A stretch of DNA of 64,000 nucleotides from Candidatus Aenigmatarchaeota archaeon (GTDB lineage: Archaea; Aenigmatarchaeota; Aenigmatarchaeia; PWEA01; JACQIF01). Position numbers and translations under genes: made by a program. This document shows positions 8,942 through 63,144 of the stretch, piece by piece. Location: the NCBI GenBank assembly GCA_016432325.1, contig CP066684.1, positions 384,001 through 448,000 of the forward strand. Direction: 5' to 3'. The notes below the pieces were generated by a model, which worked only from the letters and a program-made list of their open reading frames with translations, searched no databases and was not told the DNA's origin. Position 1 is the stretch's first letter. Each line of letters starts with the position of its first letter.

Positions 8942-8995
8942 TTACTGGTCACCTCTAATTCTTCCGAGCTGTAAAATTGAAACCGAAGGTTTCAT
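8942..8995 (-). other. Linker mini-ORF cassette MKPSVSILQLGRIRGDQ between rnp3 and rnp2
   Basis: TAA-t-ATGAAACCTTCGGTTTCAA...GAGGTGACCAGTAA-ATG. Confidence 0.7.
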
Positions 8996-8996
8996 A

Positions 8997-9704
8997 TTAC
9001 TCCTCGACCTCCACGCCCTTGTACAGTATCTTGCCTGCCAGCTTCTTCTTGTTCGCCTGCACGCGCGCCTCGCAGGTGTCGCTCACGGCGCGCATGGACT
9101 CCTCCAGGGTCAGCCCGAGAATCTGCGCCAGGGCCGCGAGTTCACGGGGATCGCGCAACCCCCACGCGTCCTTTGCGCCTGAAGTGACCACGATGGGCGT
9201 GCCGAACTCCTTGCAGAGCATCACGTTGCGTTCCATGTGGTTCAGGACGTGCGTGCGGACGCGCTTGTATGTCGTCAGAAGCTCCCCCATATTCAATTCG
9301 AGCGCAACGCCGTTCTGGGCCGCGCTCTGCGTGACCACGTGGTCTATGCCAGAGTCTACGCGCTTGAACTCGGGATGCGCTATGACGTCGACGCGGCCGT
9401 CTTCGGCCGCGGCCCTGTTTATCGCGTAGTCCCCGCCTGAAACAAGCACGAGCTCTGCGATTTCCCTGTACTTCGCAAGGGCGCGCTTCAGGGTCTTTAT
9501 CGAATCGGCCTGTATTTCCACGGCACCGACAAGCTCGAGGCCGCTTTTCTGCGAGGCGTCGCGCAGACGTTTCCTGAGCTCCCTGAAAGCGTCGAATTTC
9601 TGGTGGTATTCGACGACAGCGAGTCCTGAGAATCCGAGTGTCGCGGCTACCTCGACCGTCTTTTCCAGATCCTGCGCGTGAACGTGCAAGTCATAGAATT
9701 TCAT
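8997..9704 (-). CDS. rnp3: RNase P protein component 3 (Rpp30)
   Basis: MKFYDLHVH, GGDYAINRAA, DSGIDHV, SGAKDAWGLRDPREL; adjacent to Pop5. Confidence 0.93.
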   Translation of the reverse strand: MKFYDLHVHAQDLEKTVEVAATLGFSGLAVVEYHQKFDAFRELRKRLRDASQKSGLELVGAVEIQADSIKTLKRALAKYREIAELVLVSGGDYAINRAAAEDGRVDVIAHPEFKRVDSGIDHVVTQSAAQNGVALELNMGELLTTYKRVRTHVLNHMERNVMLCKEFGTPIVVTSGAKDAWGLRDPRELAALAQILGLTLEESMRAVSDTCEARVQANKKKLAGKILYKGVEVEE

Positions 9705-9923
9705 TCTATGTTTCCCTCACAGAGTTCGTGAACTCATAAATTTGCATACGTGCGGCTACCCCACAGATTGTTAATGTGAAGAGCCTCTTAAATAACCAAA
9801 AATCTGCCGGGAAACCTGTCCGATATCTTTTTATACTCGGATTGCAACGCATATAATTCTCAAACGCTTCGCGCAAGCGAGGAGAAAAAAAGGAAATGTC
9901 AGAAGAAGGCAATTCCACAGCGG

Positions 9924-9978
9924 AAGATTTTCGAACATCCTCGAGTGTTCGAAATACTTCGAACCGCCGGTTCGAAGA
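9924..9978 (+). repeat. Double-hairpin element, intergenic copy
   Basis: AAGATTTTCGAACA-TCCTCGAG-TGTTCGAAATACTTCGAA-CCGCCGG-TTCGAAGA. Confidence 0.85.
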
Positions 9979-10027
9979 GCACTGTAGTTTCATTCTAGAG
10001 CTCGGCATTTATTAAAGGTGAATTCTC

Positions 10028-10621
10028 ATGGTCAAACATCTCAAACTTGCTTCTCGACTCCAAGGTGCGTGGGAAACCGGACTGACCGGAGAAAAAATAT
10101 CCATAGGCTGCCGCGTTCCCAAGGAATTCTTCGTCACGAGCGGCGCGGGAGAGAGCGACATAACGATACACGCGGGCTCTTTCGACGAGGCGATGCGCGA
10201 CGCGGGAATAGAGAACTACAACCTGATGCACTACTCCTCCATAATGCCCGCGGGCGCGGTCGAAGTCGAGCGCCCGGAAGGCGCTGTGCACGGCTCCGTT
10301 CTGGAGACGATAATGGCCGTCTCCAACAGCGAGACAGGCGTGCGCGCCACGGCCGGCGTCGTGATGGGTTGGGTCTACGACAAGCGCACAGGCAAGAAGA
10401 TCGGAGGGCTCGTCGCGGAACACAACAGCCACGAAGACGAGGAGCACGCCGTGCGGATGCTGCGCGCGAGCGTAGAGAACATGTTCAAGAACAGATACGG
10501 CAACGAAGCGGAATTGCGAGACGTGCGCATCGTGACAAAGAGCATTGTGCCTGAAAAGCGCTATGGCACGGCCATGGTAGTCGTCGGTTTCACCAGTTAT
10601 GAAGTGCCTGTCCTGAATTAG
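10028..10621 (+). CDS. pdaD: Pyruvoyl-dependent arginine decarboxylase
   Basis: FVTSGAGES, SFDEAMRDAGIENYNLMHYSSIMP (Ser-Ser autocleavage site). Confidence 0.92.
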   Translation: MVKHLKLASRLQGAWETGLTGEKISIGCRVPKEFFVTSGAGESDITIHAGSFDEAMRDAGIENYNLMHYSSIMPAGAVEVERPEGAVHGSVLETIMAVSNSETGVRATAGVVMGWVYDKRTGKKIGGLVAEHNSHEDEEHAVRMLRASVENMFKNRYGNEAELRDVRIVTKSIVPEKRYGTAMVVVGFTSYEVPVLN

Positions 10622-10899
10622 TACCAGTCGACTTCGGGGCCTTTAACGTGTCTCTCCTGTTCGTGGGGCTGACAAGCCTTCTGGAGCTGGACCAGACTGA
10701 CGTGATGCATGGCCATAGCATAGGAGAACGCATCTATCTGTTTTAGCATCTCGGCAACCCGATATCCCAGATCTTCCATTTCCCCACTGGACACCGATGC
10801 GCGAGGACCATAGATAAACATGACTACGTCGCTAGCCGTAGTGCCTGTTTTGAGATTTTCGAAACCACAGTTTCGAATACTCAGAATCGGCGCATTCAT
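10618..10899 (-). CDS. Hypothetical 93-aa ORF whose N-terminus is element-derived
   Basis: ATGA overlap with the rpl15e stop; no recognisable motif. Confidence 0.4.
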
Positions 10900-10919
10900 C
10901 CATAGTGCCGATTCTGAGA
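10832..10919 (-). repeat. Synonymously recoded duplication of the rpl15e 3' end around a double hairpin
   Basis: TCT CAG AAT CGG CAC TAT GGA TGA vs TCT CAA AAC AGG CAC TAC GGC TAG. Confidence 0.9.
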
Positions 10920-11465
10920 CGGGCGCACTTTCTCCGCGCCTTTGCCGACGCTTCTCATGCCGCGCGACTTCCTTCCCGCAGACGTCAAGCCACGGAATAC
11001 GCGCCCCCTATTGGCTCCGTCAACGACCCACGAGACGTCACGGTCGCTGCGCACCGCCGGATGCGAATAGTCGACGAGAACAATCTCATACCACTCGCTC
11101 TTGCCGTCGCGGCCGACCCAGTATGAATTCAGGACTTCCAGATTGACAAACTTCTTCGCGGCGCGCTCTTCGGCAATCCACTGGTGCGACTTCTTCGGAG
11201 TTGCCCAGCGGCCCATGCTCCTCGGTTTGCGACCGCCCGACCAAGAGGGCTTCTTGCGGCCGCCGACATCGACGCGCACGCGCGCCATGACAAAGCCGGA
11301 CTTCGCCTTGTAGCCCAGCGCACGCGCGCGGTCTATCCGGGTGGGACGTTCGATGCGCGTAACTGTGTTTTCGGAACGCCATTTGATAAGTCTCTGTTTC
11401 CAAAGCTCTCCGAGCGCTTCTTGCGGCTTGTTCCATTTCTCTGCCACATACTTGTAGAATCCCAT
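10896..11465 (-). CDS. rpl15e: 50S ribosomal protein L15e
   Basis: [41 protein letters not shown]; ATG 11465 after SD GAGGTG. Confidence 0.98.
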
Positions 11466-11477
11466 CGTATACACCTC

Positions 11478-11525
11478 TTTTGGTTTGCGACCAATCCTTC
11501 AGGCGTGCACGCCCACATCGGAGGT
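11478..11525 (-). promoter_or_regulatory. Structured 5' leader of rpl15e (candidate r-protein leader)
   Basis: TCCGATGT-GGGCGTGCACGCC-TGAAGGA K-turn-like hairpin plus TTGGT-CGCAA-ACCAA hairpin next to the SD. Confidence 0.5.
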
Positions 11526-11578
11526 TTAGTGTAGTGAAAACCCAAGCTTTATATAGACGGCGGGACGTAGCAAAAACC

Positions 11579-11645
11579 ATGGGAGCCGCATGAAACTGAA
11601 GTTTCAAAGCTCCCATGAAGAATTGGTGATGTCATGGGAGCCGCG
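11579..11645 (+). repeat. Start-duplication hairpin cassette
   Basis: ATGGGAGCCGCA-TGAAACTGAAGTTTCAAA-GCTCCCATGA...GGTGA...ATGGGAGCCGCG, period 55. Confidence 0.88.
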
Positions 11646-11849
11646 CTGAAGTTCGTGTTCGGGCTTGTCTTGCTTCTTGTGGGACTCTACCTGATCGCGC
11701 CGATCGAGATACTCTCCAAACCTGCGCTGTTCGACTGGTACGGACCGTTCGTGGCTTTGGCCAAGGGCGCGATACCTCCTTTCCTCATACTGCTCGGCAC
11801 GCTCATCGTGTGGATTGAAGGCGAAGAGCTGAAGAGCGGGAAGAAGTAA
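11634..11849 (+). CDS. Small 2-TM membrane protein
   Basis: Two hydrophobic helices; WIEGEELK tail. Confidence 0.8.
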   Translation: MGAALKFVFGLVLLLVGLYLIAPIEILSKPALFDWYGPFVALAKGAIPPFLILLGTLIVWIEGEELKSGKK

Positions 11850-11888
11850 GAGGTATAAATCCTTTATTGTCGTATTCTCCGTGTAACC

Positions 11889-13007
11889 ATGATATATGCA
11901 GATTCTGGAGTTGACATCGAACTCGGGGACGACGTGTCGAAGGTTCTTTACGAGGCGGCAAAGCATACATGGAACAACCGCAAGGGCCGTCTTGGAGAAG
12001 TCGTGGAACTTTTCGAAGATTTCTCGGGCCTAAGAGCCGTCAACGTAGGCGGTCTTCCAGCAGACGCGTACATGAGCCTGGGATTCGATGGTGTCGGAAC
12101 CAAGATGGAAATCGGCGAGAGGATATCAAAGCACGATACGGTCGCCTATGACCTGTTCGCGATGGTGTGCGACGACGCCGTCGTGCGCGGTGCCGAGCCA
12201 GTTCTTATCGGCTCCATTCTCGATGTCCGCAGCCTCGGGGAAGAAGACAATTCTTACATGAAGTTTGTCAAGCAGCTCGCCACTGGATACATAGGCGCCG
12301 CCAAGGAGGCCAACGTCGCCGTAGTCAATGGAGAAGTCGCCGAGCTCGGCGCGCGCGTCAGCGGTTACGGGTCTTTCAACTACAACTGGGGAGCCGGCGT
12401 CGCCTGGTTCGCCAGAAGGAACCGAATGTTCACGGGCCGTGAAATAGTGGAAGGCGACTATCTCGTCGGCCTCCGTGAAGAAGGATTCAGGTCCAACGGA
12501 CTGTCGCTCGTAAGGAGGATTATGAAAAAGGCGCACGGCGATGACTGGCACGAGGAGAAGCACAACGGCAAGAATTTGGCCGAACTCGCCCTTCATCCCT
12601 CCCGCATTTACACTGGCGCGGCCGTCGAAATGTTTGGAGGATTTGACTGGAAACCTCGAGCGTCCGTCCACGGAATCGCGCATATAACAGGTGGCGGTGT
12701 CCCTGGCAAACTCGGAAGGGTTCTAAAGCCCAGAGGCTTGGGCGCGAACATAACAGACCCGTTTGAGCCGGCGGACCTAATGCTCCACTGCCAGGAGATT
12801 GGAGATGTAACGGACGCAGAAGCCTACAGAACCTGGAATATGGGACAGGGCATGATAGTCATAACAGACGAACCAGAAGACGTCGAACGTGTTGCCAAGA
12901 AGCGCCGGATAAACGCTAGGCGCATAGGCAGAGTATCCGCACGACCGGGCATACAGATAGCGAGCAAGGGACTAAACGCGAAAAAAGACGGCGTACTCTC
13001 GTTCTGA
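11889..13007 (+). CDS. purM: AIR synthase (PurM) family protein
   Basis: YADSGVDI, DGVGTK, GEVAEL, GFRSNGLSLVR, HITGGG, TWNMGQG. Confidence 0.88.
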   Translation: MIYADSGVDIELGDDVSKVLYEAAKHTWNNRKGRLGEVVELFEDFSGLRAVNVGGLPADAYMSLGFDGVGTKMEIGERISKHDTVAYDLFAMVCDDAVVRGAEPVLIGSILDVRSLGEEDNSYMKFVKQLATGYIGAAKEANVAVVNGEVAELGARVSGYGSFNYNWGAGVAWFARRNRMFTGREIVEGDYLVGLREEGFRSNGLSLVRRIMKKAHGDDWHEEKHNGKNLAELALHPSRIYTGAAVEMFGGFDWKPRASVHGIAHITGGGVPGKLGRVLKPRGLGANITDPFEPADLMLHCQEIGDVTDAEAYRTWNMGQGMIVITDEPEDVERVAKKRRINARRIGRVSARPGIQIASKGLNAKKDGVLSF

Positions 13008-13063
13008 CGGAATAGCGGCACGCCACACGTTCGGCTTATTATCTTTCTCTGCATAATGTTTCT

Positions 13064-14353
13064 ATGAAAGTCATTCCCGCGTCCCTGTGCGTCCGCTGCA
13101 AAGGCGGCAAGAATCTATGCGGTCTCGGTTACTGCCCCCTTCTCTCGCGCGTCCGGCTGAAGCCCACGTTCGACGCAACGCTCAAGGAGGAGTTCTTCGG
13201 TCCCAGCACGAACGTCTTTGTCGGGAGGTACGGCTACCCGCGCGTCAACGTCGGGCCTCTCAGCGTCATACAGATGGGCGATACCGACATGGACGTGATA
13301 GATGACCCTTCCAAATGGTTCGGGATGCCTTATCAGAAAATAATAGAGATGCGCTCCCTGATGATGCGTTCTGAGAAAAGAAACGAAGTCCGCGCGCGTA
13401 CGCGCTACGTGGAGGAAAACCAGTTGCTCGCTCTCGCGCAGAAGCCCGTGGACGTCGAACTCCATTTCAAGAAGAAACCCGTCTACAAGATGGACTTCTC
13501 CGACGTACACCAGCCGATGGGCCCGAGCGCGCGGCTGCAGGAGATGAAGATTGCCGGAAACGTAAGCGTGTCTCGCGCCGTCGAAGGCGTAACGAACGAC
13601 GAGTTGAAGGCGCGCGAAGCGATGGTAACGCTTTACCAGAAGGACGAGAGCGTCTACAAGATAATGGCCGTGCTTTCCTCAGGCGCGCTGGGCGTGCGCG
13701 ACAAGAAGCTCGTGCCGACGAGGTGGTCCATAACGGCGGTCGACGACACGCTGTCGAAGCACCTGCTCCAAAGCGTGCGGACGTACGCGCCGATAAACGA
13801 GTATCGCGTTTACGAGTCAGAATTCCTTTACAACCGTTTGTGCGTGCTCCTCGCGCCGGGCTCGTGGGAGTACGAAGCGTTCGAATCGTGGGCGCCTGGC
13901 TCGATGTGGGCGCGTTTCGCCAAGGAGTACTACATCATAGAGGAGTACGAATCGCATGAGGGTCGCAGCGACTACGCGGACGAGATGGGAGGATGCTACT
14001 ATTCGACTCGGCTGGCCGTGGCCGAAGCGCTCGCCGCGGAACGCCGACAGGCCCGTTGCATAGCCTTCCGCGAGGTGGACGACGGTTACATAATTCCGGT
14101 TGGGGTGTGGCAGGTCCGCGAGAACGTAAGAAACGCGATGCGCTCGGCGCCGCGGCGCTTCGCCACTCTCGAAGAAGCGTTAACGTACATACAAACCAGG
14201 ATGAAGATTCCTATGGACGCGTACAAGAAGCGGTCGCGCATTCTTGTGCAAAAGAGGCTGTCGGACTTCACGAGCAAAAGAGTGAAGCCCGAAACGGCAA
14301 CTTGGGAGGATTCCGTATCAATTGCACGAAGCGAACCGAGAAGCCTTAAATAA
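13064..14353 (+). CDS. nreA: Nre family DNA repair protein
   Basis: N-terminal CVRCKGGKNLCGLGYCP, LVPTRWSITAVD, PVGVWQVRENVR, PIP-box QKRLSDF. Confidence 0.93.
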   Translation: MKVIPASLCVRCKGGKNLCGLGYCPLLSRVRLKPTFDATLKEEFFGPSTNVFVGRYGYPRVNVGPLSVIQMGDTDMDVIDDPSKWFGMPYQKIIEMRSLMMRSEKRNEVRARTRYVEENQLLALAQKPVDVELHFKKKPVYKMDFSDVHQPMGPSARLQEMKIAGNVSVSRAVEGVTNDELKAREAMVTLYQKDESVYKIMAVLSSGALGVRDKKLVPTRWSITAVDDTLSKHLLQSVRTYAPINEYRVYESEFLYNRLCVLLAPGSWEYEAFESWAPGSMWARFAKEYYIIEEYESHEGRSDYADEMGGCYYSTRLAVAEALAAERRQARCIAFREVDDGYIIPVGVWQVRENVRNAMRSAPRRFATLEEALTYIQTRMKIPMDAYKKRSRILVQKRLSDFTSKRVKPETATWEDSVSIARSEPRSLK

Positions 14354-14373
14354 GTTCCCTCGCATTCACACTC

Positions 14374-15324
14374 ATGGAGTTCTTCGCCGACAAGTCATAC
14401 GTGAGCCGTCTCCTGACAAACGCCGACAGGCCCGCATACGCCGTTGACGTGAACGGCCTGCTGGCGCCCCAGGGAAAAATGGCCGAACGCACGACTCTGT
14501 TGGCGTATTATAAAAAGATCGGCAGGAGCACGCTGGACGACGCCGTGATGAAGTTCCCGAGGAGTATGCTCATACGGGCTGGTCTTGTCAAGCCTTCGAG
14601 GGAAGAGCTGGAGATACTCGACCTCTACTACAAGAAGAGCGGCGTCTCCAAGAAGCGGGCCGTGTATGGCGACGCGCTCGACCCTACTCTCCAGTTGATG
14701 GGAGACGCGGCGCTGTTTCTCAGAGGCGAGCCCGCCGAACTGCTCGAAAGGGACATCAACGTGGGTTTCGTGATGAGCGCCATGTACGAAGAATCCAAGC
14801 CGTTCATAGAGGAGATAAGAAGCATCCCGCGAACGCGAGCCATGTTCGTCTCAGGAGGCACCCCCGGCCAGATAGTCCGGAGGATGGCAGAGGCGTGGCG
14901 TTACGACGACTATATCGCACCCGCACTGGAGATTAAGAACGGCAGGTTCACAGGACGATTCGAAGGCAGCTACCAGGATGCAATAAACCTGAGACTCTCA
15001 CGCGCCCTCTGGGAAGACGAGCAGCTGAGAGGAAAGGTCGAAGAAGTCCATCCTGACATGCTCGTCCTGTGGGGCCACGACGAGGAGGATGTGGAGAAAA
15101 GAGCCTTCCTTGACAAGCTGAACGAACCGAACAACTACGTTCTTTTCGGCGTCAGGCCCTATGCCAAAGGCGTTCCGAGAAAGATTCTCAAGAAAGAGGA
15201 AGAGGCATTTGACAGGATTGCCGGCGGATTCGACGTGGTTTTCGACGACCTTCCCGAAGCGACGAGCTTTCTGCACGAAATACGCATGGAGATACACAAG
15301 AAGGACGCGGCCGTAAAGCACTGA
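14374..15324 (+). CDS. Divergent HAD-superfamily (SerB-like) protein
   Basis: AVDVNGLL (degenerate motif I), VSGG, LEIKNGRFTG. Confidence 0.55.
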   Translation: MEFFADKSYVSRLLTNADRPAYAVDVNGLLAPQGKMAERTTLLAYYKKIGRSTLDDAVMKFPRSMLIRAGLVKPSREELEILDLYYKKSGVSKKRAVYGDALDPTLQLMGDAALFLRGEPAELLERDINVGFVMSAMYEESKPFIEEIRSIPRTRAMFVSGGTPGQIVRRMAEAWRYDDYIAPALEIKNGRFTGRFEGSYQDAINLRLSRALWEDEQLRGKVEEVHPDMLVLWGHDEEDVEKRAFLDKLNEPNNYVLFGVRPYAKGVPRKILKKEEEAFDRIAGGFDVVFDDLPEATSFLHEIRMEIHKKDAAVKH

Positions 15325-16512
15325 TCACTTCGCCGCCGAAATTATCTCCACCACGTCCCCGTGCTTCAGCGCGTGCTCGCGACCGATGCGCTGGCGCGTG
15401 CGCACGTCCATCGCGTACAGGAAGTTCTTGGCGAAGTCCGTGTGTATGCGCGCGGCGAAATCATAAGCCGTCGTGCCGGGCGGCATCAGGAAACAGTCCG
15501 GCATCACTCGTCCTTCCGAATCCTCCAGCTTCCCGATGCCCCCGGGGAATATCGCGATATACTTCAGGAAATCGAAGACCGCGCGGTCGAGAACGTCCTG
15601 AACGCCTGTGGAACCGAAGCGGGCGAGCAGACTTTGTATCTTGTCAAGAGCCTCTTTCTGTTTCGTGTTGAGCTGCTTCTTTGTTTCGAACTTCCCCTCT
15701 CCCGGGTGGTATTCGACCAGCTCTCTCTTCGCCGCCTCGCGCAGCGCGAGTTCGGCGTCCGCGGCGCACGCTATTATCGTGTACGACGGGAACGCGTCGC
15801 GAAGGCGTTCAAGATTCTTCTCCGAGTCCGGCATGTCCATCTTGTTCGCGGCAATGAGAATCGGCTTCGTCTTCTTGCGCAGCTCTGTGGCGACGGTCTT
15901 CAGCTCCTCTTCTGTCCACTTGTCTATAGTCTTCTCGTGCAGGCGTGTTTTGTGCATGACGTCCTTGACGTGCTCGTCTGTGACGCGGAACGCGCCCATC
16001 TGTTTGACGAGCGTAGCCTCTGTCTTCTCTTTCGTCTGCACCGCGGTGCGCGCGAGCTTGTCCCAGCCTTTCTTCAGGATGCCGAGATACCAGAGGTCTA
16101 TTTCCTCTTCGAGGAAGCGCACGTCGTTGACAGGATCGTATCCCGTCGTCGCCTCGCCACGTTCATTCGTCATGCCGGAGGCATCGACGATATGCACCAG
16201 AACGTCGGCCTGGTTCAAATCGTTCAAAAACTGGTTCCCCAGTCCTTTCCCTTCGTGCGCGCCTGGCACGAGCCCTGCGACGTCTAGTAGTTCCACAGGC
16301 ACGTACCGCGTGCCGTCCTTGCAGTAACCGAAACGCGGGTTGCACTGCACTCCGAGGTCGCGGTCCGAGCACTTGACGCGCACGTAGCCGACGCCGCGGT
16401 TGGGTTTTATCGTGGTGAACGAGTAAGATGCGATCGCCACGTCTGCAAGCGTGACGGCCTTGAAGAACGTGCTCTTGCCGCACGAAGGCTTTCCTACGAT
16501 ACCGATGAGCAT
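15325..16512 (-). CDS. ychF: Redox-regulated ATPase YchF (archaeal, OBG family)
   Basis: GKPSCGKST, FTTIKPN, DVAGLVPGAHEGKGLGNQFL, ANKMD, TGS domain. Confidence 0.95.
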   Translation of the reverse strand: MLIGIVGKPSCGKSTFFKAVTLADVAIASYSFTTIKPNRGVGYVRVKCSDRDLGVQCNPRFGYCKDGTRYVPVELLDVAGLVPGAHEGKGLGNQFLNDLNQADVLVHIVDASGMTNERGEATTGYDPVNDVRFLEEEIDLWYLGILKKGWDKLARTAVQTKEKTEATLVKQMGAFRVTDEHVKDVMHKTRLHEKTIDKWTEEELKTVATELRKKTKPILIAANKMDMPDSEKNLERLRDAFPSYTIIACAADAELALREAAKRELVEYHPGEGKFETKKQLNTKQKEALDKIQSLLARFGSTGVQDVLDRAVFDFLKYIAIFPGGIGKLEDSEGRVMPDCFLMPPGTTAYDFAARIHTDFAKNFLYAMDVRTRQRIGREHALKHGDVVEIISAAK

Positions 16513-16563
16513 ACACGACGTTCTGACGTCGATTATTTAAGCGATTGTTGAACAAGCATACGC

Positions 16564-17139
16564 ATGTGGCTAGTCGACGTCTTCCACAAGATGCGGCGCG
16601 GACCTCAGATTCTGACGCAGAAGGACATAGGACTCATACTCGGGATGACAGGCGTGTCGAGCCCGTGGCGCGTGGTCGAGGCCGGCTCAGGCTCAGGCGC
16701 GCTCACGATGTTTCTGGCGAATGCAGTGCAGCCCAAAGGTCGCGTCTACTCATACGACTGGCGCAGCGAACACCAGGAGATCGCCAAGGAGAACGTCAAA
16801 CGCGCCGGGCTCACGAAATACGTGGAGTTCATTCACGGCGACATCGCCGCAGGAATCGAACAAAAGGACGTTGACATGGTTGTTCTGGATTTGGCAGAAC
16901 CTTGGCTGGTAGTGCCGCATGCCGAACGCGCACTGAAGGAAGGGAGCTTCTTCGTGTCTTACGTGCCGACGTTCGAGCAGATGAAGGAAACAGTGACGAC
17001 GCTCAGAGGCCACAGGTTCACGCGAGCGAAGGCGTACGACTATTCGATGCGCGAGTATCAAGTGGAAGAGAACGCCACGCGGCCCGAGAACATGGGCCTC
17101 GTGCACACAGGATTCCTTATATTCGCACGAAGAATCTAG
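16564..17139 (+). CDS. trmI: tRNA (adenine-N1)-methyltransferase, catalytic domain only
   Basis: RGPQILTQKD, EAGSGSG, LDLAEPW, TRP...HTGFL. Confidence 0.88.
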   Translation: MWLVDVFHKMRRGPQILTQKDIGLILGMTGVSSPWRVVEAGSGSGALTMFLANAVQPKGRVYSYDWRSEHQEIAKENVKRAGLTKYVEFIHGDIAAGIEQKDVDMVVLDLAEPWLVVPHAERALKEGSFFVSYVPTFEQMKETVTTLRGHRFTRAKAYDYSMREYQVEENATRPENMGLVHTGFLIFARRI

Positions 17140-17807
17140 CCGGCCGCGTCGCCGCTTTTCATCCGCTTTCCGAGGATTTTCTTTATGTGGGGCAGCGTAT
17201 CGTCGTACACGTGCGCGCTGGTGGAGAACGTTGAAATGGCGCCGAGACGCGCTCCGAGCTTGCCCGCGACGTACTTCTGCAGGACGTACGTCTGATAGAT
17301 ATTCGCGGGCCAGCCGAAGAACATGTCGTTGCTTCTTATGAACGCAGTCGCGTTCAGGGCTCCTTCGCGCAGCTTGAAGTCGAAGGCTACTATGCCCGGC
17401 ATCTCCCGCCCGCTTGCCTGCGAATCATGCCGCGTGTCCCACGTCAGCAGAACGGCTCGTCCCGTCTCCGGACGATTCTTGAGCAACGGTATCAGAAAGT
17501 CGTCCACCTGGTTTTTGCTGTCAACGTTGAAGAGTCTGGGGCCGTATGTGTAAATGTAGTTCCTAGTTTTGCCCGTGGGCATGACGCACTCCTCTATCTC
17601 CTCCAGCGAAGGATACACCCACCTTCCCAGCGAGTTTAGGGCGGTTATCGGTTCCTCTATCCTCTTTGCAACCTGAAGGACTGTCACGAGCAGATTGAGG
17701 CAGTCTATCGAATCCCTTTGCCTGTGGTGCACCGGTTTGCCGTGCTGCATCACGTACGCGAGCACGCTCTTCCACGCCTTCAATGCGTCTTGTGATATGA
17801 TCTCCAA
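17136..17807 (-). CDS. Thymidylate synthase-like protein lacking the catalytic Cys
   Basis: YTYGPRL, RSNDMFFGWPAN, SAHVY; MPG in place of PC; likely TTG start 17807. Confidence 0.8.
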   Translation of the reverse strand: MEIISQDALKAWKSVLAYVMQHGKPVHHRQRDSIDCLNLLVTVLQVAKRIEEPITALNSLGRWVYPSLEEIEECVMPTGKTRNYIYTYGPRLFNVDSKNQVDDFLIPLLKNRPETGRAVLLTWDTRHDSQASGREMPGIVAFDFKLREGALNATAFIRSNDMFFGWPANIYQTYVLQKYVAGKLGARLGAISTFSTSAHVYDDTLPHIKKILGKRMKSGDAAG

Positions 17808-17817
17808 TGGAAACGCC

Positions 17818-19419
17818 TCACGCAAACGTCTGCAGATTCTTCAGTTCGCCTTTGGGCGCGTCGGCCTCGTATGCGAAGAAAGGCAGCCTGTAAGTACTCA
17901 GCAGTATGTTCACTTCTCTAAGCGCCTCCTCTGGATTTGACTCGCCTTTCTTATGCAGAGTCATCTGGAAGCCGCCGCCTAACATGTCCGACAGCAGTTC
18001 TTTCGAGCGCACGTTCTCCCGGAAGCCGTCGGAATGGAAGTCTCTGAGAGACGAAATCTCGAGACGGTCGCGGTTCAACGGAGTTGAGAAGAGACCTGCC
18101 GGCGTCGACGGGTTAACCATCGAGAAAACGGCCTGGAAGCGTGTTGGCATGCCGCACGACACGTAAATGTCCTCTTGGCTCGTGCAGAACGCGCGCGTAC
18201 GCTTGCGCATTATCCTGAAGACGCCCTCCATCACGCCCGAGTCGTACGCAGTCCGCAAGAAATCGTAGTTCCAGAAGCGTATGTAGTCCCTTGCTATCAT
18301 AAGAGCGTCCCTGCCGCCTGAGAGGTTGAGCAGGTGCTTGAAGCACGCGTCTGTCCTGCGCGCCTGCATCGAACTGGCGGAGAAGAGCGTTTTGAGAGTT
18401 CTGTGCATCAGGTCTTCAAACGCGTTGAATGAAAACTCCGCAGACTCGCAGAACTTCTTTATGTCCACCATGAGAGTCGTCTGGGCCGCGACCAGCGCCT
18501 TCGGCTGTTTGTCCAATGCCAGCCATTCCGCGTCGTCGAACGTGTAAGGCCCCGCCTTGCCCATCAAATATGGGGATTTCACAATATCCTTGTTCTTGAA
18601 GAAGACCTTCCTGGCCTTGTAGACGTTGAAGACCTCCTCGAAAAATTCGTAGTTGCCCTGAAGTTCTTTCGTGCTGGTTTCAAAGATGAACTTCACCGTG
18701 TGTTCAGCCGGAGCGTTCATCTTGAGCATCTGCAAAAGCCTCTGCCTGCCCTGCGGGCTGAGCTGCGACGGATCGACGATTACACTGAACCGGCGGTCGA
18801 AGTCCTTGCAGTCCACAAGCATCCGCTTGCAGAACTCGACCAGCTTTTCCGCCGAGTTCGCGTTGACGTGATTGGTGAAGTTGTTGACCGCGATGACGTC
18901 GTTTATCTCCGAGTAGAGGGGAGCCGCGGCCCTGTAGAGGGAAGAGAGGTCCTCCATGTCAAGCACGACGGCGTTTGCGCTGTCAAGCCAAGCCTCGCCC
19001 CCGAAACGGACGGCTATCTTCTTTTCCTCAAACGCCCCCGTGGGAAGGTTTGCGACGCGCGGCTTAGACAAAACGAGACGCCTCTTCCTATAGTCTCCGA
19101 AGACTATCTCCTCGTCCCCGTCGATGTCAAGCGCGTAGTATTTCTCGCCGCTCGTGTCCGTCCGCGTAACGCGCACCAGCTCTTTCTCGATAAGCCTGTT
19201 CAGATGGTAGAGGACGCGCCTGTGAAGCTGGGCCTTCATGCCCTTGGCCCTCCTGACTTCCTGAGGTGGCACGTATTGGCTTGTCAGGACCTTGTCTATC
19301 CTGGAGAATTCGTCTGCGTAAACGACGGAAGCAACATCCGACGTGGACATCCCTTCCTGCCTTCCCCTGAAAGCCAGCAGGACGTCTTGAGAACGCTTTT
19401 CCTTCACGATCCCCACCAA
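17818..19419 (-). CDS. Large protein with N-terminal winged HTH and unknown C-terminal domains
   Basis: STSDVA...LHRRVLYHLNRLIEKELVRV...GEKYYAL. Confidence 0.75.
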   Translation of the reverse strand: MVGIVKEKRSQDVLLAFRGRQEGMSTSDVASVVYADEFSRIDKVLTSQYVPPQEVRRAKGMKAQLHRRVLYHLNRLIEKELVRVTRTDTSGEKYYALDIDGDEEIVFGDYRKRRLVLSKPRVANLPTGAFEEKKIAVRFGGEAWLDSANAVVLDMEDLSSLYRAAAPLYSEINDVIAVNNFTNHVNANSAEKLVEFCKRMLVDCKDFDRRFSVIVDPSQLSPQGRQRLLQMLKMNAPAEHTVKFIFETSTKELQGNYEFFEEVFNVYKARKVFFKNKDIVKSPYLMGKAGPYTFDDAEWLALDKQPKALVAAQTTLMVDIKKFCESAEFSFNAFEDLMHRTLKTLFSASSMQARRTDACFKHLLNLSGGRDALMIARDYIRFWNYDFLRTAYDSGVMEGVFRIMRKRTRAFCTSQEDIYVSCGMPTRFQAVFSMVNPSTPAGLFSTPLNRDRLEISSLRDFHSDGFRENVRSKELLSDMLGGGFQMTLHKKGESNPEEALREVNILLSTYRLPFFAYEADAPKGELKNLQTFA

Positions 19420-19434
19420 CGTTGCTTTCTGTAT

Positions 19435-19549
19435 AACCCTGAAGCTATTTAATCCCCGTTTCAGGATAATCCTGACACAGTTGTACTTTATTCTGACACG
19501 CTGAAAACAGAAGCGCTCCGTTCAGGGTTTCGTAGTATCGTGTCAGGAT
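19435..19549. promoter_or_regulatory. Divergent promoter region with repeated and inverted ATYCTGACAC motifs
   Basis: ATCCTGACAC 19469, ATTCTGACACG 19490, CGTGTCAGGAT 19539, TCAGGAT 19461. Confidence 0.55.
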
Positions 19550-19595
19550 AGCTCTTGCGGCGGGCATTAAGTGCGTCCCTGATGCAGAAGGAGGC

Positions 19596-20210
19596 GTGCC
19601 AGCCGTATCAGAATCGTTTGATGCAATCGGCCTCTCCGAATACGAAGGGCGGGCATATGCTGCTCTTTTGAGGGTTCCCGAAGCCACGGGCCCGTGGGTG
19701 GCTCGCTCCTCGGGAGTGCCCCTTTCCAAAATCTACGAAGTCATGGCCCGCCTTGCAGAGAAAGGATTTGCCCTCTGCGGGCCTGACGCCAAGCCGAGAA
19801 AATACAAGGCAGTAGATCCTTCGATATCAATTGAGGCATTTGTAGAGGCCAGGAAATCGCGTCTCGAGAATGCGAAGACCCTTCTTCTCGCAAGGCTCTC
19901 CACGAAGATGTCCAGCGAGCAGGACAGGAGCATCTGGATTGTGAAGGGCCAGTACGCTGTTGAAACTCTCATGACATCGCTCATAAGGAAAGCCTCGAAT
20001 AGCGTCGTCTACAGGCATTCCTCGGACAGGAACAAATTCGTTCGCGCCAGACTCGAGGAGGTCGCTGCAAAAGGCATTGCCGTGGATTCCAAGCCGAGCG
20101 AGACGACGGCTAACCTTCTGAACGTGGACGGCCGCGAGTTGCTCGTGTACGCAAGCAAAGGCGAAGTGCTCTGGATACGCGATCCGCGCTACCTCAGGCG
20201 AGGCGAATAG
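19596..20210 (+). CDS. TrmB family transcriptional regulator
   Basis: GLSEYEGRAYAALL, SGVPLSKIYEVMARLAEKG, PRKYKAVDP. Confidence 0.9.
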   Translation: MPAVSESFDAIGLSEYEGRAYAALLRVPEATGPWVARSSGVPLSKIYEVMARLAEKGFALCGPDAKPRKYKAVDPSISIEAFVEARKSRLENAKTLLLARLSTKMSSEQDRSIWIVKGQYAVETLMTSLIRKASNSVVYRHSSDRNKFVRARLEEVAAKGIAVDSKPSETTANLLNVDGRELLVYASKGEVLWIRDPRYLRRGE

Positions 20211-26114: not shown

Positions 26115-26221
26115 GCGTTGCCCGTGGTCGCGCGTCGGGCATCCCTATATAAACCCCGCGCGCCATCTTTTCGCAGGCATTTTTATGCCTTTCCGAGCGA
26201 GATTGCAGAGGTGTTCGTAAG

Positions 26222-36414: not shown

Positions 36415-37037
36415 GGGCGGCAGCCGGACTTTTCATAGACGTTTTTGCGCGGAAGAGCGCAAAAAGGTCTGAGCACGTGAACTCCAAAGGGTTGTCGATG
36501 ATAATATCGCATGTGCTGGGACTGGCCCTCATGATAGCCGCCTTTGCCGTCGTGTCCGTCGGAATGCTGGGGTATTTCACCACCGTCTCCCATGAAACGC
36601 AGGAAGCTCAGGCGTCGCTAGTGGCTCGCGCCGTCGCAGAAGAGATAGTCAAGATGGAGACGCTCTACAGAGATTCCGACACTCGACCCACTCAGAACAA
36701 TACGAACGTGACTCTCGCGGACGTTTACATGGACGTCCCTCTGAGAATAAGTGGTCACGCGTACTCGATAGAGTTCTTTCCAAGATCAGACCTATGGGTG
36801 GTGAGCAACGCAACAATAAACGGATTGGTGGAGACGCCGCTGAGCGAGGACAGGCCGTACAGCAAGATGCGCATACAAACCGAAGGGTCGGCGGCGATAA
36901 CCCTCGACTACGACATCTACAACATTTTCGCCAAGACCGAAGGTTCTGCAGGGCATACGGACCGCATAAGGCTGCGTTACACGCGCTCGCTCCTGCAAGG
37001 CGCGCTGACGGACAGCATAATATTATCGGGTGCATGA
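36411..37037 (+). CDS. Class III signal peptide pilin-like protein
   Basis: SKG|LSMII followed by a hydrophobic helix. Confidence 0.8.
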   Translation: MRAAAGLFIDVFARKSAKRSEHVNSKGLSMIISHVLGLALMIAAFAVVSVGMLGYFTTVSHETQEAQASLVARAVAEEIVKMETLYRDSDTRPTQNNTNVTLADVYMDVPLRISGHAYSIEFFPRSDLWVVSNATINGLVETPLSEDRPYSKMRIQTEGSAAITLDYDIYNIFAKTEGSAGHTDRIRLRYTRSLLQGALTDSIILSGA

Positions 37038-37038
37038 C

Positions 37039-37863
37039 ATGCTAAGTAAGAAAGGGTTCAACCAGGTTGATTTGGCAGTAGGCCTGTCTCTGATGCTGGC
37101 CGTGATGACCTTCGCGATAATCTACACGAATACTGCTATCGCGCCTCAGGTTAGCAGCGTGCAGTCCTTCGAGCTGCGGGCCACGGCAAAGGCCCTCGGG
37201 GACATGATATTCGAAGACCGAGGCGTCCCGACAGACTGGCCCTATCAGGAGCCCGTTCGGCCGTCGCTCATGGAGTACATCTACGCTGTCCCGCTCTCCG
37301 TGCGCGAAACGAACGGCACCGGATTGTCCAACGGAGTAATCAGCGTAAACCTGACGACGGGCGAACGCGCGTACAACGGCAGCATAAAGGTCTACGACGG
37401 GAACACGAGCCTCGCCACGAACGTTGTGGCCAGCGGCGATACGGACAGCGACGGCCTGCTCGAATGGGCCAACATTTCGTTCAGGTTCAGCATAGGCCCG
37501 CGGGAGAAGAAGCTGCTCAACGTTTATTACTCCGCGGACAACACGACCGCGGCAGCGTACACGTCACTCACGCAGACCGCGAACACGACGTTCAACGTCA
37601 CGATATTCGGCGAGCAGAGCCTCAAGGGGCTGACGCCGCTGAAGCTCGGACGGATAAACAACAAAACGTCAGCCTACCTGCGCCCCCTCTTCGGCATCAA
37701 GCGCGACTTCAGGATAGAGATCGCAAACGTCACAGGCACCGCGTACGCCGCCGGCGACGACCTTCCGAAGACCACCAACGTCGTTGTCAACGAACGTCTC
37801 ATTCCTTCCCAGAACAGGACTGCTCACATAAATCTGGTAAAAGCAACTCTGTGGATATGGTGA
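37039..37863 (+). CDS. Class III signal peptide pilin-like protein
   Basis: KKG|FNQVD; GVPTDW motif. Confidence 0.85.
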   Translation: MLSKKGFNQVDLAVGLSLMLAVMTFAIIYTNTAIAPQVSSVQSFELRATAKALGDMIFEDRGVPTDWPYQEPVRPSLMEYIYAVPLSVRETNGTGLSNGVISVNLTTGERAYNGSIKVYDGNTSLATNVVASGDTDSDGLLEWANISFRFSIGPREKKLLNVYYSADNTTAAAYTSLTQTANTTFNVTIFGEQSLKGLTPLKLGRINNKTSAYLRPLFGIKRDFRIEIANVTGTAYAAGDDLPKTTNVVVNERLIPSQNRTAHINLVKATLWIW

Positions 37864-37867
37864 TTCA

Positions 37868-37957
37868 ATGAATTTACCGCTCAGAAGGCCAAGAGGCGCA
37901 CGAAAAGATTCGCTTTTCGGCGCACCGAAAACCGACGTTTTCGGAGGTGACCAGTAA
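37868..37957 (+). other. Linker mini-ORF cassette (29 codons) with two hairpins
   Basis: CGAAAAG-ATTCG-CTTTTCG, CCGAAAAC-CGAC-GTTTTCGG; ends GAGGTGACCAGTAA-ATG, identical to 8942. Confidence 0.7.
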
Positions 37958-38353
37958 ATGTACGGGAAAGGACTGACTTACACGCTCGAAGCAGTCATAG
38001 CGCTCTCGCTCGTCGCGGTTTCCATGATAGCGGTCTTCAACGGACTGACCGTTCCGCAGGGAGCCCAGTTGCGTTTCGGTGAAGAGAACGCCTTCTCGTG
38101 CCTTAAGAGCCTGGACAGCGACGGCAAGCTGCGGGCCGACGCGGTGGCGCGCAACGCAGGGGCGATATCCAACAACCTGATAGGGTGCATTCGCGGCTCG
38201 TTCAATCATACTGTGCAGGTCTGCCAGGGCACGTGCACAAGCGTGACTCTTGACAGGGACGAGGACGTCGCATCAGTGGAGTATTACATCGCCGGGCACA
38301 ACACGACAAACCCGACGCTTGTGGTGGTATACGCATGGTCTTCCCTAACGTGA
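37958..38353 (+). CDS. Class III signal peptide pilin-like protein
   Basis: GKG|LTYTLEAVIA. Confidence 0.85.
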   Translation: MYGKGLTYTLEAVIALSLVAVSMIAVFNGLTVPQGAQLRFGEENAFSCLKSLDSDGKLRADAVARNAGAISNNLIGCIRGSFNHTVQVCQGTCTSVTLDRDEDVASVEYYIAGHNTTNPTLVVVYAWSSLT

Positions 38354-57796: not shown

Positions 57797-57800
57797 TAAA

Positions 57801-58262: not shown

Positions 58263-58300
58263 GTGCTAGATTGGAGGGCCTCATATAAAACCGCCCGGCC

Positions 58301-58711: not shown

Positions 58712-58750
58712 GACCAATCTAAGGCCGTCCCCGTATAAAACGGCCCGTCA

Positions 58751-59371: not shown

Positions 59372-59412
59372 AGTAGCCGTCAACATTTCAGAAGAACAGA
59401 ATAAAAAGACGC

Positions 59413-59943
59413 TCAGCCTGCCTGCACCGTGCCCGTGAAGTTCCTCGAAGGTTTGAATGTCAGGCCGCTCACGTCGTCTATGTACGATACGGTTACTTGT
59501 ATCTCGTACGACTGGCCTACGTTTCCGCATCTGATGCCCCTGCCGCCTGTGGACGTGTTCCTGCATATCTGAGTCTGCCCTGGGAATATGTCAGGCGTAC
59601 CTGTGCAGTCCGTGAGGACCGTCGAGCTCTCGTTGCTGGCGTTAAGGTAGATGTCCTTTATCTGCCCGGCGCCGTTGTTCTGCACGGAAACGGAGAAACG
59701 ACCTTCGCTGTCGCACAGGTAGCCCACGACCGCGAGCTGTTCGCCTGCCTGCGTTATCTGGGAAGACTGCGACGTCAGGGAGTTGCGGATGCCTCCTATA
59801 TTGAGCTGGAAGATGGCGATGCCGACGATGATTATGAGAGCTATGGCCCACGCGTAGTTCATTAGGTATTCGATGGCAGACTGTCCCTTCGGGGAGGGAC
59901 GCCTGTTGTCGTGGGGTTTGTTGGCAGAACGCATACTCTTCAT
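59413..59943 (-). CDS. Class III signal peptide pilin
   Basis: KG|QSAIEYLMNYAWAI. Confidence 0.88.
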   Translation of the reverse strand: MKSMRSANKPHDNRRPSPKGQSAIEYLMNYAWAIALIIIVGIAIFQLNIGGIRNSLTSQSSQITQAGEQLAVVGYLCDSEGRFSVSVQNNGAGQIKDIYLNASNESSTVLTDCTGTPDIFPGQTQICRNTSTGGRGIRCGNVGQSYEIQVTVSYIDDVSGLTFKPSRNFTGTVQAG

Positions 59944-59970
59944 GCCTTAAAGTAAGGGCTCTGTATATAA

Positions 59971-60336
59971 ATGTGGATGAGTCCTAGGGAACTTATGCCC
60001 CCGTACGTGACTGCCGCATTCGCCATCCTTCTGGGCTTCGAGATTCTGGCCGCGTACGCAACTGCCGCTACCGCGCTGCGTGCTGGAGGCGTCTACGGCA
60101 GGAGTCTCCAGTCTATTCTGGCCGCCGTTCTGTTCCTCGCCTGCGCGACTGCCGTGCGTCTGGGCTTTTACACCGGAATCCTGCCCCGCGCAGACGCGCT
60201 GGCCGTGGAGTCCTGCTTCTACACCTTCGCGTTCCTGAACTTCCTGCCCGCGACGCTGATGTGGAGAGGACTTGGAAGGGAGCGCGTCTCGTCCATCTCG
60301 GCCAACATAAAGGAGTTCTACGGTGAGATTACATGA
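59971..60336 (+). CDS. Small multi-TM membrane protein
   Basis: Three hydrophobic helices. Confidence 0.65.
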   Translation: MWMSPRELMPPYVTAAFAILLGFEILAAYATAATALRAGGVYGRSLQSILAAVLFLACATAVRLGFYTGILPRADALAVESCFYTFAFLNFLPATLMWRGLGRERVSSISANIKEFYGEIT

Positions 60337-61007
60337 CGTTCACTGAAATCCTGTATACGGGAAAGGCCGTCCCCATGTTCGCCTATGTGACGCTGACGCT
60401 CCTCGCGTTTTTCGTCCTTATGCGCAATCCGCGGGCGCCTCTCAACCGCATCTTCTTCTTTCTGGCGATGGTCTCCTCGTTCTGGAACGTGGCGATGTTT
60501 CTAGTTCTCGGCTCGCAGACGCCTGAAGAGGCCGCGACGAACTGGAAGCTGTACGAACTGGCCGTCCTGCTGCTCGTTCCAACGTGGGTCAGTTTCGCCC
60601 TGCGTTTTGCCGGCAAGAGCGTCGCGCCGTCTCTCGTGTACGCGCCCAGCATGGCATTCGTTCCGCTGCTTTTTTTCACGGACCTGCTCTTCAAGGGAGT
60701 GACGCACGACGGCGCGTTCTACTATGAAGTGAACGGAGGAACGATGTTCGCCGTGTACAGCCTGTATATCCTCTCGTACATCCTTTACGGCCTCTACAAG
60801 TTGGTCGGCGCATACTTCTATTCCGCGGCAGAGGACAGGATGCGCATAAAGTGGGTGACCGGAGGGATAGGTGTCGTCGTTCTGACAGGCTCCATCGATA
60901 CGCTGCTCTCGTTGAGCGGCGCGACCGTACTGCCCATCGCCCCTGCAACCTCATTGATCGCCGTGGCGGCGATTGCCTATTCGTTCACTGTGGGTGAAAG
61001 CGCATGA
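60333..61007 (+). CDS. Stand-alone histidine-kinase N-terminal 7TM-like domain
   Basis: RNPRAPLNRIFF...W...PTWVSFALRF; no kinase domain follows. Confidence 0.7.
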   Translation: MTFTEILYTGKAVPMFAYVTLTLLAFFVLMRNPRAPLNRIFFFLAMVSSFWNVAMFLVLGSQTPEEAATNWKLYELAVLLLVPTWVSFALRFAGKSVAPSLVYAPSMAFVPLLFFTDLLFKGVTHDGAFYYEVNGGTMFAVYSLYILSYILYGLYKLVGAYFYSAAEDRMRIKWVTGGIGVVVLTGSIDTLLSLSGATVLPIAPATSLIAVAAIAYSFTVGESA

Positions 61008-61282
61008 GCGACATCGGCCTGCTTCTGGGTCTTTTCGGGATTGCCGTGGGCCTCGGAGCCATAGCGGTGCTTTTCTTCAACGCCGACCGTGCCCTGCCCG
61101 CGTACAGGAGGATTAACGAACTGTTTTCCATCGTACTTCTGTCGATGCTTGTTGGCGCGTCTAGCCTTCTCCTTGGATTCCTGCTCTCTATTGAAACCTA
61201 CCCGGATGCGATAGCCGTCGTCTCGCAGATGGCCGGCGCTGCCGTCATCATATACGCCGTCAGGAACGCGGAGGCGCGCTAA
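61004..61282 (+). CDS. Small 3-TM membrane protein
   Basis: Hydrophobic; ATGA-coupled. Confidence 0.65.
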   Translation: MSDIGLLLGLFGIAVGLGAIAVLFFNADRALPAYRRINELFSIVLLSMLVGASSLLLGFLLSIETYPDAIAVVSQMAGAAVIIYAVRNAEAR

Positions 61283-62223
61283 GCGCTGAGTCCAACCAGC
61301 CCGGCGATGAGGCCTTTCGCCACGAAAAAGACCGCGAAAGACGTGGCCAGGAAAAAGGGCACGAACTTCAGCCCGACGCGCATGCTGCCGTCCTTGACTA
61401 TCCCTATTCCGAGAGACGTGAAGAAGCTCGTTATCGCTATGGCGGCGAGGAAGAAGTTTCTGAGCATATCTGCCGGAGGAACCGATGTGGAAAAAGACAG
61501 CAGGCCGAGAGGCGAGCCCCCTGTTCCCTGCGCAGAGGCGACGGCGAATATCTCGCCGCTTGCCTCGACAAGATAAGACGAAAGAGCGAACAGCAGAGGA
61601 GACGCCACGAGAGCCGCGAAGCCCAGGAAAAGCGTGTATGTTGTTGTCGATGCGCGTATGTCGCGCGTTATGTTCCGCATGTCGTTGATGTTGCGCGCCA
61701 TTGCCGTGCATACTGTGTCGACGTTGACCCCGCTTTCGACGCTGCGGCACAGCGTTTCGATCGTCTTCGCATAGAGCTGCGATTCCACACGCGCGCGCGT
61801 GGCGCGCAACGCGTCCACCATCGAGACGCCGGTGTTCATCTCTATGACGGCCGTCGACATCTCGACACCGAGCTGCCCGAACTCGTCTGTCATCAGGAGC
61901 TGCATGGAGTCTTTTATCGGCAGTCCGGCCTTCACGTTGGACGCCAGCAGTTCGAGCGCGTCTGTCAGCGAATCCTCTACCTCCCGCGCCTTTGCGTAAG
62001 CCATGTAATCGAGAGCGAACACCGTGCCAACGAATATTATCACAAACGCCAAAACGGCGCCCGCGGCTGTCACCAGCACGCTCTGCGTTATGAAGAACAG
62101 CGACAGCGCCGCGGCGGCGCTCAGGGGCAGGGCCATCTTGACCTGCAGTTTCATCCACTCCGCGGGCTTAATGCGGAGAGACGTCTTCTCCAGCCTGCTC
62201 CTGACATAACTCTCGTAACTCAA
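61279..62223 (-). CDS. Type IV pilus platform protein (TadB/TadC-like)
   Basis: LTDALELLASNVKAG, EFGQLG, GIGIVKDG. Confidence 0.9.
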   Translation of the reverse strand: MSYESYVRSRLEKTSLRIKPAEWMKLQVKMALPLSAAAALSLFFITQSVLVTAAGAVLAFVIIFVGTVFALDYMAYAKAREVEDSLTDALELLASNVKAGLPIKDSMQLLMTDEFGQLGVEMSTAVIEMNTGVSMVDALRATRARVESQLYAKTIETLCRSVESGVNVDTVCTAMARNINDMRNITRDIRASTTTYTLFLGFAALVASPLLFALSSYLVEASGEIFAVASAQGTGGSPLGLLSFSTSVPPADMLRNFFLAAIAITSFFTSLGIGIVKDGSMRVGLKFVPFFLATSFAVFFVAKGLIAGLVGLSA

Positions 62224-62226
62224 GCG

Positions 62227-63099
62227 CTACACCTCCACAAGCGGCCTCCTGCTCCTCAGGAAGCCGATGGCCGACGCGTGGAACATCAGAAGGAAGAACG
62301 TCAGCATGTAGACGAGCGACTCCGTTATCGCCAGCCCTGTGAAAGTGGACAGCATGACCATGAGCGTCAGCCCCATCGAAGGAAGAACGATTCCCACCAT
62401 CAGGTAGAGCGTGGCCCAGAGATTTATCTCCTGGCCGTACGCCTTTACCTGGGCCTTCGTCTCTTCTGTCAGGTTCTCTATGACGACGGAGAGAAGCGTC
62501 GGTATGTCAGCGCCGCTCCTTATTCCGTTGAAGATTCTCAGCATCGCCGACTTGTATAGCTTGCTCGTGTTCTTGCGCATGCTGCGTTCCATGGCGTCCT
62601 CCAGCGGCGTGCCGATTCTTATGTCCTTGACGATTTCATTCATCTCTTCAGAAAGGTGGCCGTAGCCTTCCGTGAGGAGATCGAGGGAGTCGACGAACGA
62701 CATTCCCGCGTCGAGTTCGACCGATATGTCGCGAAGCGCGAAGAGCAGTTCGCGGTCGATGAGTTGCGCGCGCTTGTGCGCCTGTACCTTCGGGAAGCTC
62801 ATCCAGTACAGCAGCGTCACCGCGCCCATCGACAGGCCTGCGATGAGGGAGAACCCGAAAAACTGCAGGGCCTGGCCGGCAAAAATGGCCAGGGAAAATA
62901 CGGTCAGGAACGCCAGGGAGCCCATAAGGACCGCGTTGGCCAGTCCCAGCGTCGCATACTCATCGGCCGTTTCTTCGGCGTGTATCGCGTCGAGATAATA
63001 TTTCAGGGAGGGGCTGAGCTGAACCATCGCCGCCGCAGGTCCCCTGAAAAACCGCCGTGTGAACGGCAGCGTCTTGCGTATCGGAAACGGAGGGATCAT
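62227..63099 (-). CDS. Type IV pilus platform protein (TadC-like)
   Basis: IDRELLFALRD, GYGHLSEE, GTPLEDAM, SGAD. Confidence 0.9.
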   Translation of the reverse strand: MIPPFPIRKTLPFTRRFFRGPAAAMVQLSPSLKYYLDAIHAEETADEYATLGLANAVLMGSLAFLTVFSLAIFAGQALQFFGFSLIAGLSMGAVTLLYWMSFPKVQAHKRAQLIDRELLFALRDISVELDAGMSFVDSLDLLTEGYGHLSEEMNEIVKDIRIGTPLEDAMERSMRKNTSKLYKSAMLRIFNGIRSGADIPTLLSVVIENLTEETKAQVKAYGQEINLWATLYLMVGIVLPSMGLTLMVMLSTFTGLAITESLVYMLTFFLLMFHASAIGFLRSRRPLVEV

Positions 63100-63144
63100 T
63101 TACCAACCTCGTTCAAAACAAGTAAAATTGCCGCGCGTTTTCAT
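63100..63144 (-). other. Linker mini-ORF cassette MKTRGNFTCFERGW
   Basis: TGA-c-ATGAAAAC...CAATTTTAC...GAGGTTGGTAA-ATG; shares motifs with 8942-8995. Confidence 0.6.

Follow-up and report, generated by a model that had tools for sequence, protein, structure and literature searches.

Mini-ORFs that may bridge hairpin inserts at start codons of an aenigmatarchaeal genome

What are the short open reading frames (mini-ORFs) that fill the space between neighbouring genes at three junctions of an archaeal chromosome, and why does each of them end exactly at the start codon of the next gene? The question is raised by a stretch of 64,000 nt (hereafter the window, C1:384001-448000) in a single-contig genome of 874,869 bp, the best matches of which in an L14 alignment are Aenigmatarchaeota metagenome-assembled genomes at 55-64% identity. 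An earlier note on this DNA had described mini-ORFs of 17, 29 and 14 codons that start 1-4 nt after the upstream stop and end in TAA directly followed by ATG, and all three are indeed found at the coordinates it gave (sites 1 to 3, Table 1), beginning 1, 4 and 1 nt past the upstream stop, respectively, and each terminating as TAA|ATG. The note furthermore took them for insertions inside operons that are made harmless by relaying the ribosome. We favour, with moderate confidence, a wider form of this explanation, in which the mini-ORFs are translated bridges of short hairpin elements inserted on start codons and relay ribosomes by termination and reinitiation.

A repeat family and its empty sites

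Identical ends had been pointed out at sites 1 and 2, on opposite strands. The sequence GAGGTGACCAGTAAATG is identical at 8939-8955 (-) and 37944-37960 (+), and as an exact 17-mer it is confined to these two sites in the genome, but it forms the end of a family of about 19 copies. The 12-mer GACCAGTAAATG occurs seven times in the genome, every time immediately 5' of an ORF, and genome searches for related copies return 16-19 with nhmmer and 19 with a covariance model (CM) at E<0.01, nearly all of them immediately 5' of real gene starts. The conserved unit of about 35 nt reads TTTAC, GCTCAGA, 7-9 variable bases, GAGGGACC, one base, GTAA and then ATG, conservation thus including the 5' half and not the Shine-Dalgarno (SD) end alone, and the hairpin ATGAAAC-N4-GTTTCAT is often found 5' of it. 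The genes served are functionally unrelated (L14, L1, S12, histone, SMC, KaiC-like, HerA-like, TrmB, M1 peptidase, T2SSE/F and Pop5), and about half of the copies are at promoters and not within operons, for which reason the restriction to operons in the earlier explanation was too narrow. The CM also matches the genome G001, of the same genus, and one other family of the order, with no match in the remaining families of the order searched; in Rfam, 12 loci were searched at E<=1 and the window at gathering score, both without a match.

About 30 inserts with the hairpin TGAAAC-N3-6-GTTTCA make up a wider set that includes the family; this core has 30 copies in the genome (control 0), 27 of them intergenic in a genome that is 12% intergenic; in half of the genome G019 five core hairpins were found, a small count. 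In many copies of the wider set 9-18 nt from the start of the local gene are repeated, the arm 3' of the hairpin being complementary to this duplicated target. A second core-hairpin subfamily ends in ATTGGTGAAGTnC ahead of ATG (e.g. C1:297996, 755663, 31823 and 72172), and there the mini-ORF stop is a TGA inside the SD, 5 nt from the start. At C1:488084-488176 (L013) three head-to-tail 39-nt units with no upstream ATG stand immediately before a T2SSE ATPase gene, sharing sequence, in another frame, with the 3' end of the upstream ORF.

To judge from the comparison with relatives, the mini-ORF spacers are insertions and not conserved untranslated regions, since the orthologous pairs abut in G001 at sites 1 and 3, as the earlier note had anticipated. 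In that genome neither junction has an element: the Rpp30 stop TAG directly abuts the Pop5 ATG, and 2 nt separate the T2SSE stop from the T2SSF start. Likewise free of elements in G001 are the L1 start (SD, ATG, GCG, AAG) and L14, which forms an ATGA overlap with its upstream gene, and in archaeal L14 loci the upstream ORF ends <=10 nt from the start in 65 of 76. A zinc-finger gene abuts S12 in three other genomes of the order, S12 giving no match in G001. In the genome under study an HVO_2753-like small zinc-finger gene (C1:802450-802704, L017) lies immediately before S12, a synteny kept in those three genomes, and in G000 part of the element's 3' module is present and contains the stop of the zinc-finger gene.

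Furthermore, the ATG of the mini-ORF has the position of the gene's own ATG in G001 and shares its SD (L1: GGAGGTTGTTC). Independent inserts with 14-15-nt direct repeats are present at Pop5 and L14 in G019 and absent from both in its genus-mates G004 and G017, which also lack an insert at the site 2 junction, where G001 has two different hairpin inserts, each with flanking 10-nt direct repeats. The ends of the element form an imperfect inverted repeat, TTTAC/GTAAA, which is itself the complement of the duplicated target, and the direct repeats range from 3 to about 15 nt. A query with Rpp30 for related loci returned no match. Contigs from four groundwater DNA runs of one study, compared with window positions 1-20000, confirm the assembly across site 1, and no element-free variant of this site was seen in them, rare variants being prone to drop out of contigs. 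Joints at 3066-3160 in these contigs were considered as inserts and rejected, since they represent GTPase genes of other organisms matched onto aIF5B.

Reading frame, ribosome binding and the relay

Among copies found by homology alone, 10 of 11 length architectures are multiples of three that are open to the abutting stop (binomial p ~1.3e-4). They amount to 39 nt (5+34, 6+33 and 4+35), 54 nt (20+34 and 21+33), 57 nt (23+34 and 24+33) and, in copies with nested hairpins, 87, 90 and 126 nt, several of them carrying compensating +1/-1 differences. A frame that is kept by compensating lengths up to a stop beside the main ATG is what a relay predicts, and this part of the earlier explanation has held up together with the insertions themselves, as seen from the empty sites. 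The shared sequence is nevertheless read in different frames among copies, the peptide is not conserved, and the hairpin stem covaries at the cost of amino-acid changes. It follows that selection acts on an open frame ending at the start codon and not on a product.

The stop abuts the main start in 16 of the 19 copies, and in operon-internal copies the mini-ORF begins 1-4 nt after the upstream stop or overlaps it. Counted over the genome, 17 predicted starts have an abutting mini-ORF of 10 codons or more as compared with 4.95 in shuffles (3.4-fold), none of 100 shuffles reaching 17, and 13-14 of these 17 mini-ORFs are members of the hairpin-insert family. Of 25 hairpin leaders in the wider set, 19 have a mini-ORF that ends at -4 to +7 of the main start, its stop often being the TGA of GGTGA. 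The SD of the element is positioned at -17 to -7 of the main start, and its GAGGTGA-CCAG can pair with CUGG(A)UCACCUC at the 16S end, the 3' end of the 16S gene reading GGATCACCTCCT. SDs are in use at 21% of starts in the genome as against a background of 6%, with a peak at -14 to -8, and all three stop codons are in use. The 16S rRNA gene itself (C1:637095-639272, L006) is 2178 nt long as compared with a model of 1478 positions, and thus contains insertions or introns amounting to about 700 nt. In the RNAalifold structure UAUUUAC is paired with GUAAAUG, a stem that would sequester the main AUG.

Insertion, frame and SD may then be joined in the following way. An insert would land on the start codon and duplicate the ATG, in some cases together with as many as about 15 bases beside it. 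The former start of the gene, still served by the former SD or stop-start junction, would then open a mini-ORF of 12-41 codons that crosses the hairpin and the element-borne SD, its stop (TAA or TAG) immediately preceding the new ATG. On coming from the old site, a ribosome would melt the hairpin as well as the weak stem pairing with the new AUG and then terminate, after which it would most likely re-initiate at the adjacent AUG, helped by the second SD, and such a relay would preserve the function of the gene and any operon coupling. In H. volcanii a spacing of about 22 nt is enough to abolish translational coupling (PMC10666635), and an unbridged insert of 46-94 nt would therefore uncouple the genes.

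Several points weigh against this explanation. In the copy at genome position 853970 the frame is lost and the stop comes 11 nt early, and the insert at window 11579 stops after 4 codons, so that full bridging is not obligatory; the stop positions are moreover inherited with the element, and their clustering at the start should not be counted as separate support. In addition, the basic units fold weakly (z -0.9 to -1.8), the gene starts were predicted by our own crude gene caller, with orthologues confirming six genes, and no mobilising enzyme was found: searches of the genome, which is 90% complete, for Y1 transposase, TnpB and GIY-YIG (PF01797, PF07282 and PF01541) gave no match, other transposase families not having been searched.

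The early-stop copies at 853970 and 11579 are equally what one would expect if the same insertions work without any relay, the main gene being initiated independently at the well-placed SD of the element while the mini-ORF need only terminate in time. Avoidance of interference alone would also predict the conservation of frame, since a frameshift in most copies sends ribosomes into the main ORF. A nonsense mutation anywhere would however suffice for this purpose, and yet the great majority of copies keep the stop against the ATG, and operon-internal copies furthermore replace junctions that are tightly coupled in relatives; we therefore regard initiation without a relay as unlikely, although it is the main alternative and agrees with the same data.

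It has also to be considered that the insert might be a domesticated regulatory leader, in which hairpin and T-rich tract would form an attenuator, or else an operator recognised by an RNA-binding protein, and would set the expression of housekeeping genes as a regulon. In two families of the order the hairpin is conserved and covaries, AT-rich relatives have a T5-6 tract behind it, and the main AUG can pair with sequence just 3' of the hairpin. This reading is made very unlikely by the facts that presence at the same gene differs between close relatives, that the downstream genes are functionally unrelated, that the peptide is not conserved and that the tract is just T3-4 in this genome. A leader-peptide attenuator finds no better agreement, the shared sequence being in different frames and the tract T3-4 only. 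A promoter with TTTAC as TATA box was rejected because nested-hairpin copies break the fixed spacing, a DNA operator for a transcription factor because the arm spacing runs from 25 to 122 nt and the stems covary, and a conserved micro-protein because the frames differ between copies, and no feature supporting an integron attC, a CRISPR or a BHB-intron was found. Finally, chance ORFs in ordinary spacers, with the shared 17-mer as a mere strong SD, would fit GAGGTGA as the SD core and the occurrence of the exact 17-mer only twice, but are hardly credible in view of the conserved 5' half, the excess of abutting mini-ORFs over shuffles, the sites that are empty in the sister genome and the compensated frame, and a chance origin of the mini-ORFs is thus excluded.

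Sites and further inserts in the window

Site 1 is a strong member of the family (CM match of 58.6 bits, E 7e-11) and displays, on the minus strand, the core hairpin at 8978-8994, the element-borne SD at 8945-8955, the stop at 8942-8944 and the new Pop5 ATG at 8939-8941. Its hairpin folds at -13.6 kcal/mol, the last codons of Rpp30 provide the old SD (GAGGAG) for the start of the mini-ORF, and the N-terminus of Pop5 agrees with orthologues from five genomes. Site 2 is a unit without the core hairpin, interrupted by a nested 51-nt double hairpin (37896-37946), with the SD at 37944-37954 and the main ATG at 37958; the hairpin folds at -29.7 kcal/mol (z -2.6 against shuffles), and an old SD, GGTGA, lies within the last codons of the upstream gene. 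Site 3 shares ATGAAA..CAATTTTAC with site 1, as had been noted, but is a diverged look-alike with a CM match at just E 3.9 and a fold no better than shuffles (z +1.7), and the description of all three mini-ORFs as hairpin-bearing consequently applies to sites 1 and 2 and not to site 3.

Table 1. Mini-ORFs, inserts and flanking genes in the window
Feature	Position	Strand	Description
Core hairpin before L7Ae-family gene (429-842)	372..387	+	SD region duplicated, start codon not
RNase P subunit Pop5/Rpp14, gene served by site 1	8555..8941	-	Pfam PF01900
Site 1 element and mini-ORF	8942..8995	-	17 codons + TAA, between Rpp30 and Pop5
RNase P subunit Rpp30	8997..9704	-	Pfam PF01876, E 4.5e-40
Mini-ORF before Rpp30	9706..9747	-	Degenerate duplicate of the gene's first six codons (14/18 nt) + SD-like GAGGGA
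ORF before pyruvoyl arginine decarboxylase gene	9896..10015	+	39 codons; two TTCGAA-type hairpins
Core-hairpin insert before 71-aa gene at 11634	11579..11633	+	11-nt direct repeat of gene start
Mini-ORF before S26e gene	26185..26220	+	11 codons, ends 1 nt ahead of gene start
Upstream gene of site 2	37030..37863	+	Weak DUF7287 match, pilin-like
Site 2 element and mini-ORF	37868..37957	+	29 codons + TAA, between two pilin-like genes
Downstream gene of site 2	37958..38353	+	131 aa; no Pfam family; G001 orthologue 58% identity
T2SSF-type membrane protein, gene served by site 3	62227..63099	-	Pfam PF00482; orthologue alignment
Site 3 mini-ORF	63100..63144	-	14 codons + TAA; diverged probable member
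T2SSE-type secretion ATPase, upstream of site 3	63146..64000	-	Pfam PF00437; leaves the window, 542 aa in genome

Three further upstream mini-ORFs had been singled out as similar, and all of them exist, but the one before the arginine decarboxylase gene is outside the unit family and has its stop 12 nt ahead of the ATG. Before Rpp30 the mini-ORF stops at a TAG 1 nt ahead of the gene's ATG. In G001 the first 18 nt of Rpp30 (L043, G001:C48) are duplicated as well, together with a 23-nt insert containing AGGAGGT, and the resulting mini-ORF closes in an ATGA overlap with the real start. The mini-ORF before the S26e gene, which has no CM or BLAST match to the unit family, is possibly a diverged unit, the resemblance being judged by eye. 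The insert before the 71-aa gene brings a new SD, GGTGAT, with its mini-ORF ending after 4 codons as mentioned, and the hairpin at 372-387 has no mini-ORF, since the start codon is not duplicated there.

Hairpins of the type TTCGAAC-N4-GTTCGAA recur as nested inserts and between the divergent Rpp30 and arginine decarboxylase genes (9896-10015; also C1:103657-103783), and resemble a second family of hairpin modules. At 5595-5740 two tandem variant units (an ATGGAAG..CTTCCAT hairpin, then CTTACC..GGGTAA) followed by a longer GC-rich hairpin occupy a gene-free stretch between a 202-aa gene and an FtsZ-like gene, and it is solely here, at 5730-5739, that the metagenome contigs have minor variants within window positions 1-20000. 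A tRNA scan of the window found none.

Related systems and significance

Correia/NEMIS, REP/REPIN and Rickettsia palindromic elements (RPEs) are small gene-less hairpin repeats that are polymorphic between relatives, and RPEs preserve reading frames. The present elements resemble such bacterial repeats, which are akin to miniature inverted-repeat transposable elements, in being small, gene-less, hairpin-forming and polymorphic among relatives. They differ in that the target is the start codon and that the frame kept open is that of a leader and not of a host protein; moreover, none of the three types of mobilising gene sought was found here, and the duplications measure 3 to about 15 nt.

Mycobacterial interspersed repetitive units (MIRUs; Supply et al. 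1997), as outlined in PMC12548453, insert at start codons and contain an internal ORF coupled to the flanking genes. Going by that outline, both are short, apparently mobile repeats at start codons with occasional tandems, and the elements described here share with MIRUs many copies near genes, a putatively coupled ORF in the orientation of the host gene and a presence that varies among relatives. Unlike MIRUs, however, they have an archaeal host, sequence homology being unlikely in any case between the two domains, and they are organised round a conserved hairpin and have arms complementary in part to the target. Their junction is an abutting TAA|ATG, whereas the MIRUs of that outline have a 4-nt stop/start overlap and lie inside operons, many copies of the present family being found on promoter-proximal starts. 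The synthetic bicistronic design mentioned in the same source (PMC12548453, ref. 78) has, as sketched there, the same layout of a first start and a short ORF whose 3' end harbours an SD and whose stop adjoins the ATG, and the same expected benefit, namely that the ribosome melts local structure; that design is engineered and not mobile, and the likeness is functional only.

More tentatively, one may go on to suggest, as a rather doubtful extension, that Aenigmatarchaeota carry an undescribed start-codon-targeting hairpin element, with no recognisable transposase and partly templated by its target, which has now become a host-required bicistronic initiation cassette for housekeeping genes (RNase P subunits, ribosomal proteins, histone and SMC). 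We found no paper on such elements in DPANN. The family prompts one to ask by what means hairpin DNA devoid of genes spreads where the genome has no visible transposase, and it matters for the annotation of DPANN genomes as well, because the inserts create false "spacers" and can mislead start-codon calls. Above all, should the relay hold, the family would constitute a natural experiment on archaeal translational coupling, in which dozens of insertions at the starts of essential genes are tolerated only where a short ORF hands the ribosome on, and the inserts may serve as ready-made constructs for studying termination-reinitiation, leaderless initiation and the use of a second SD.

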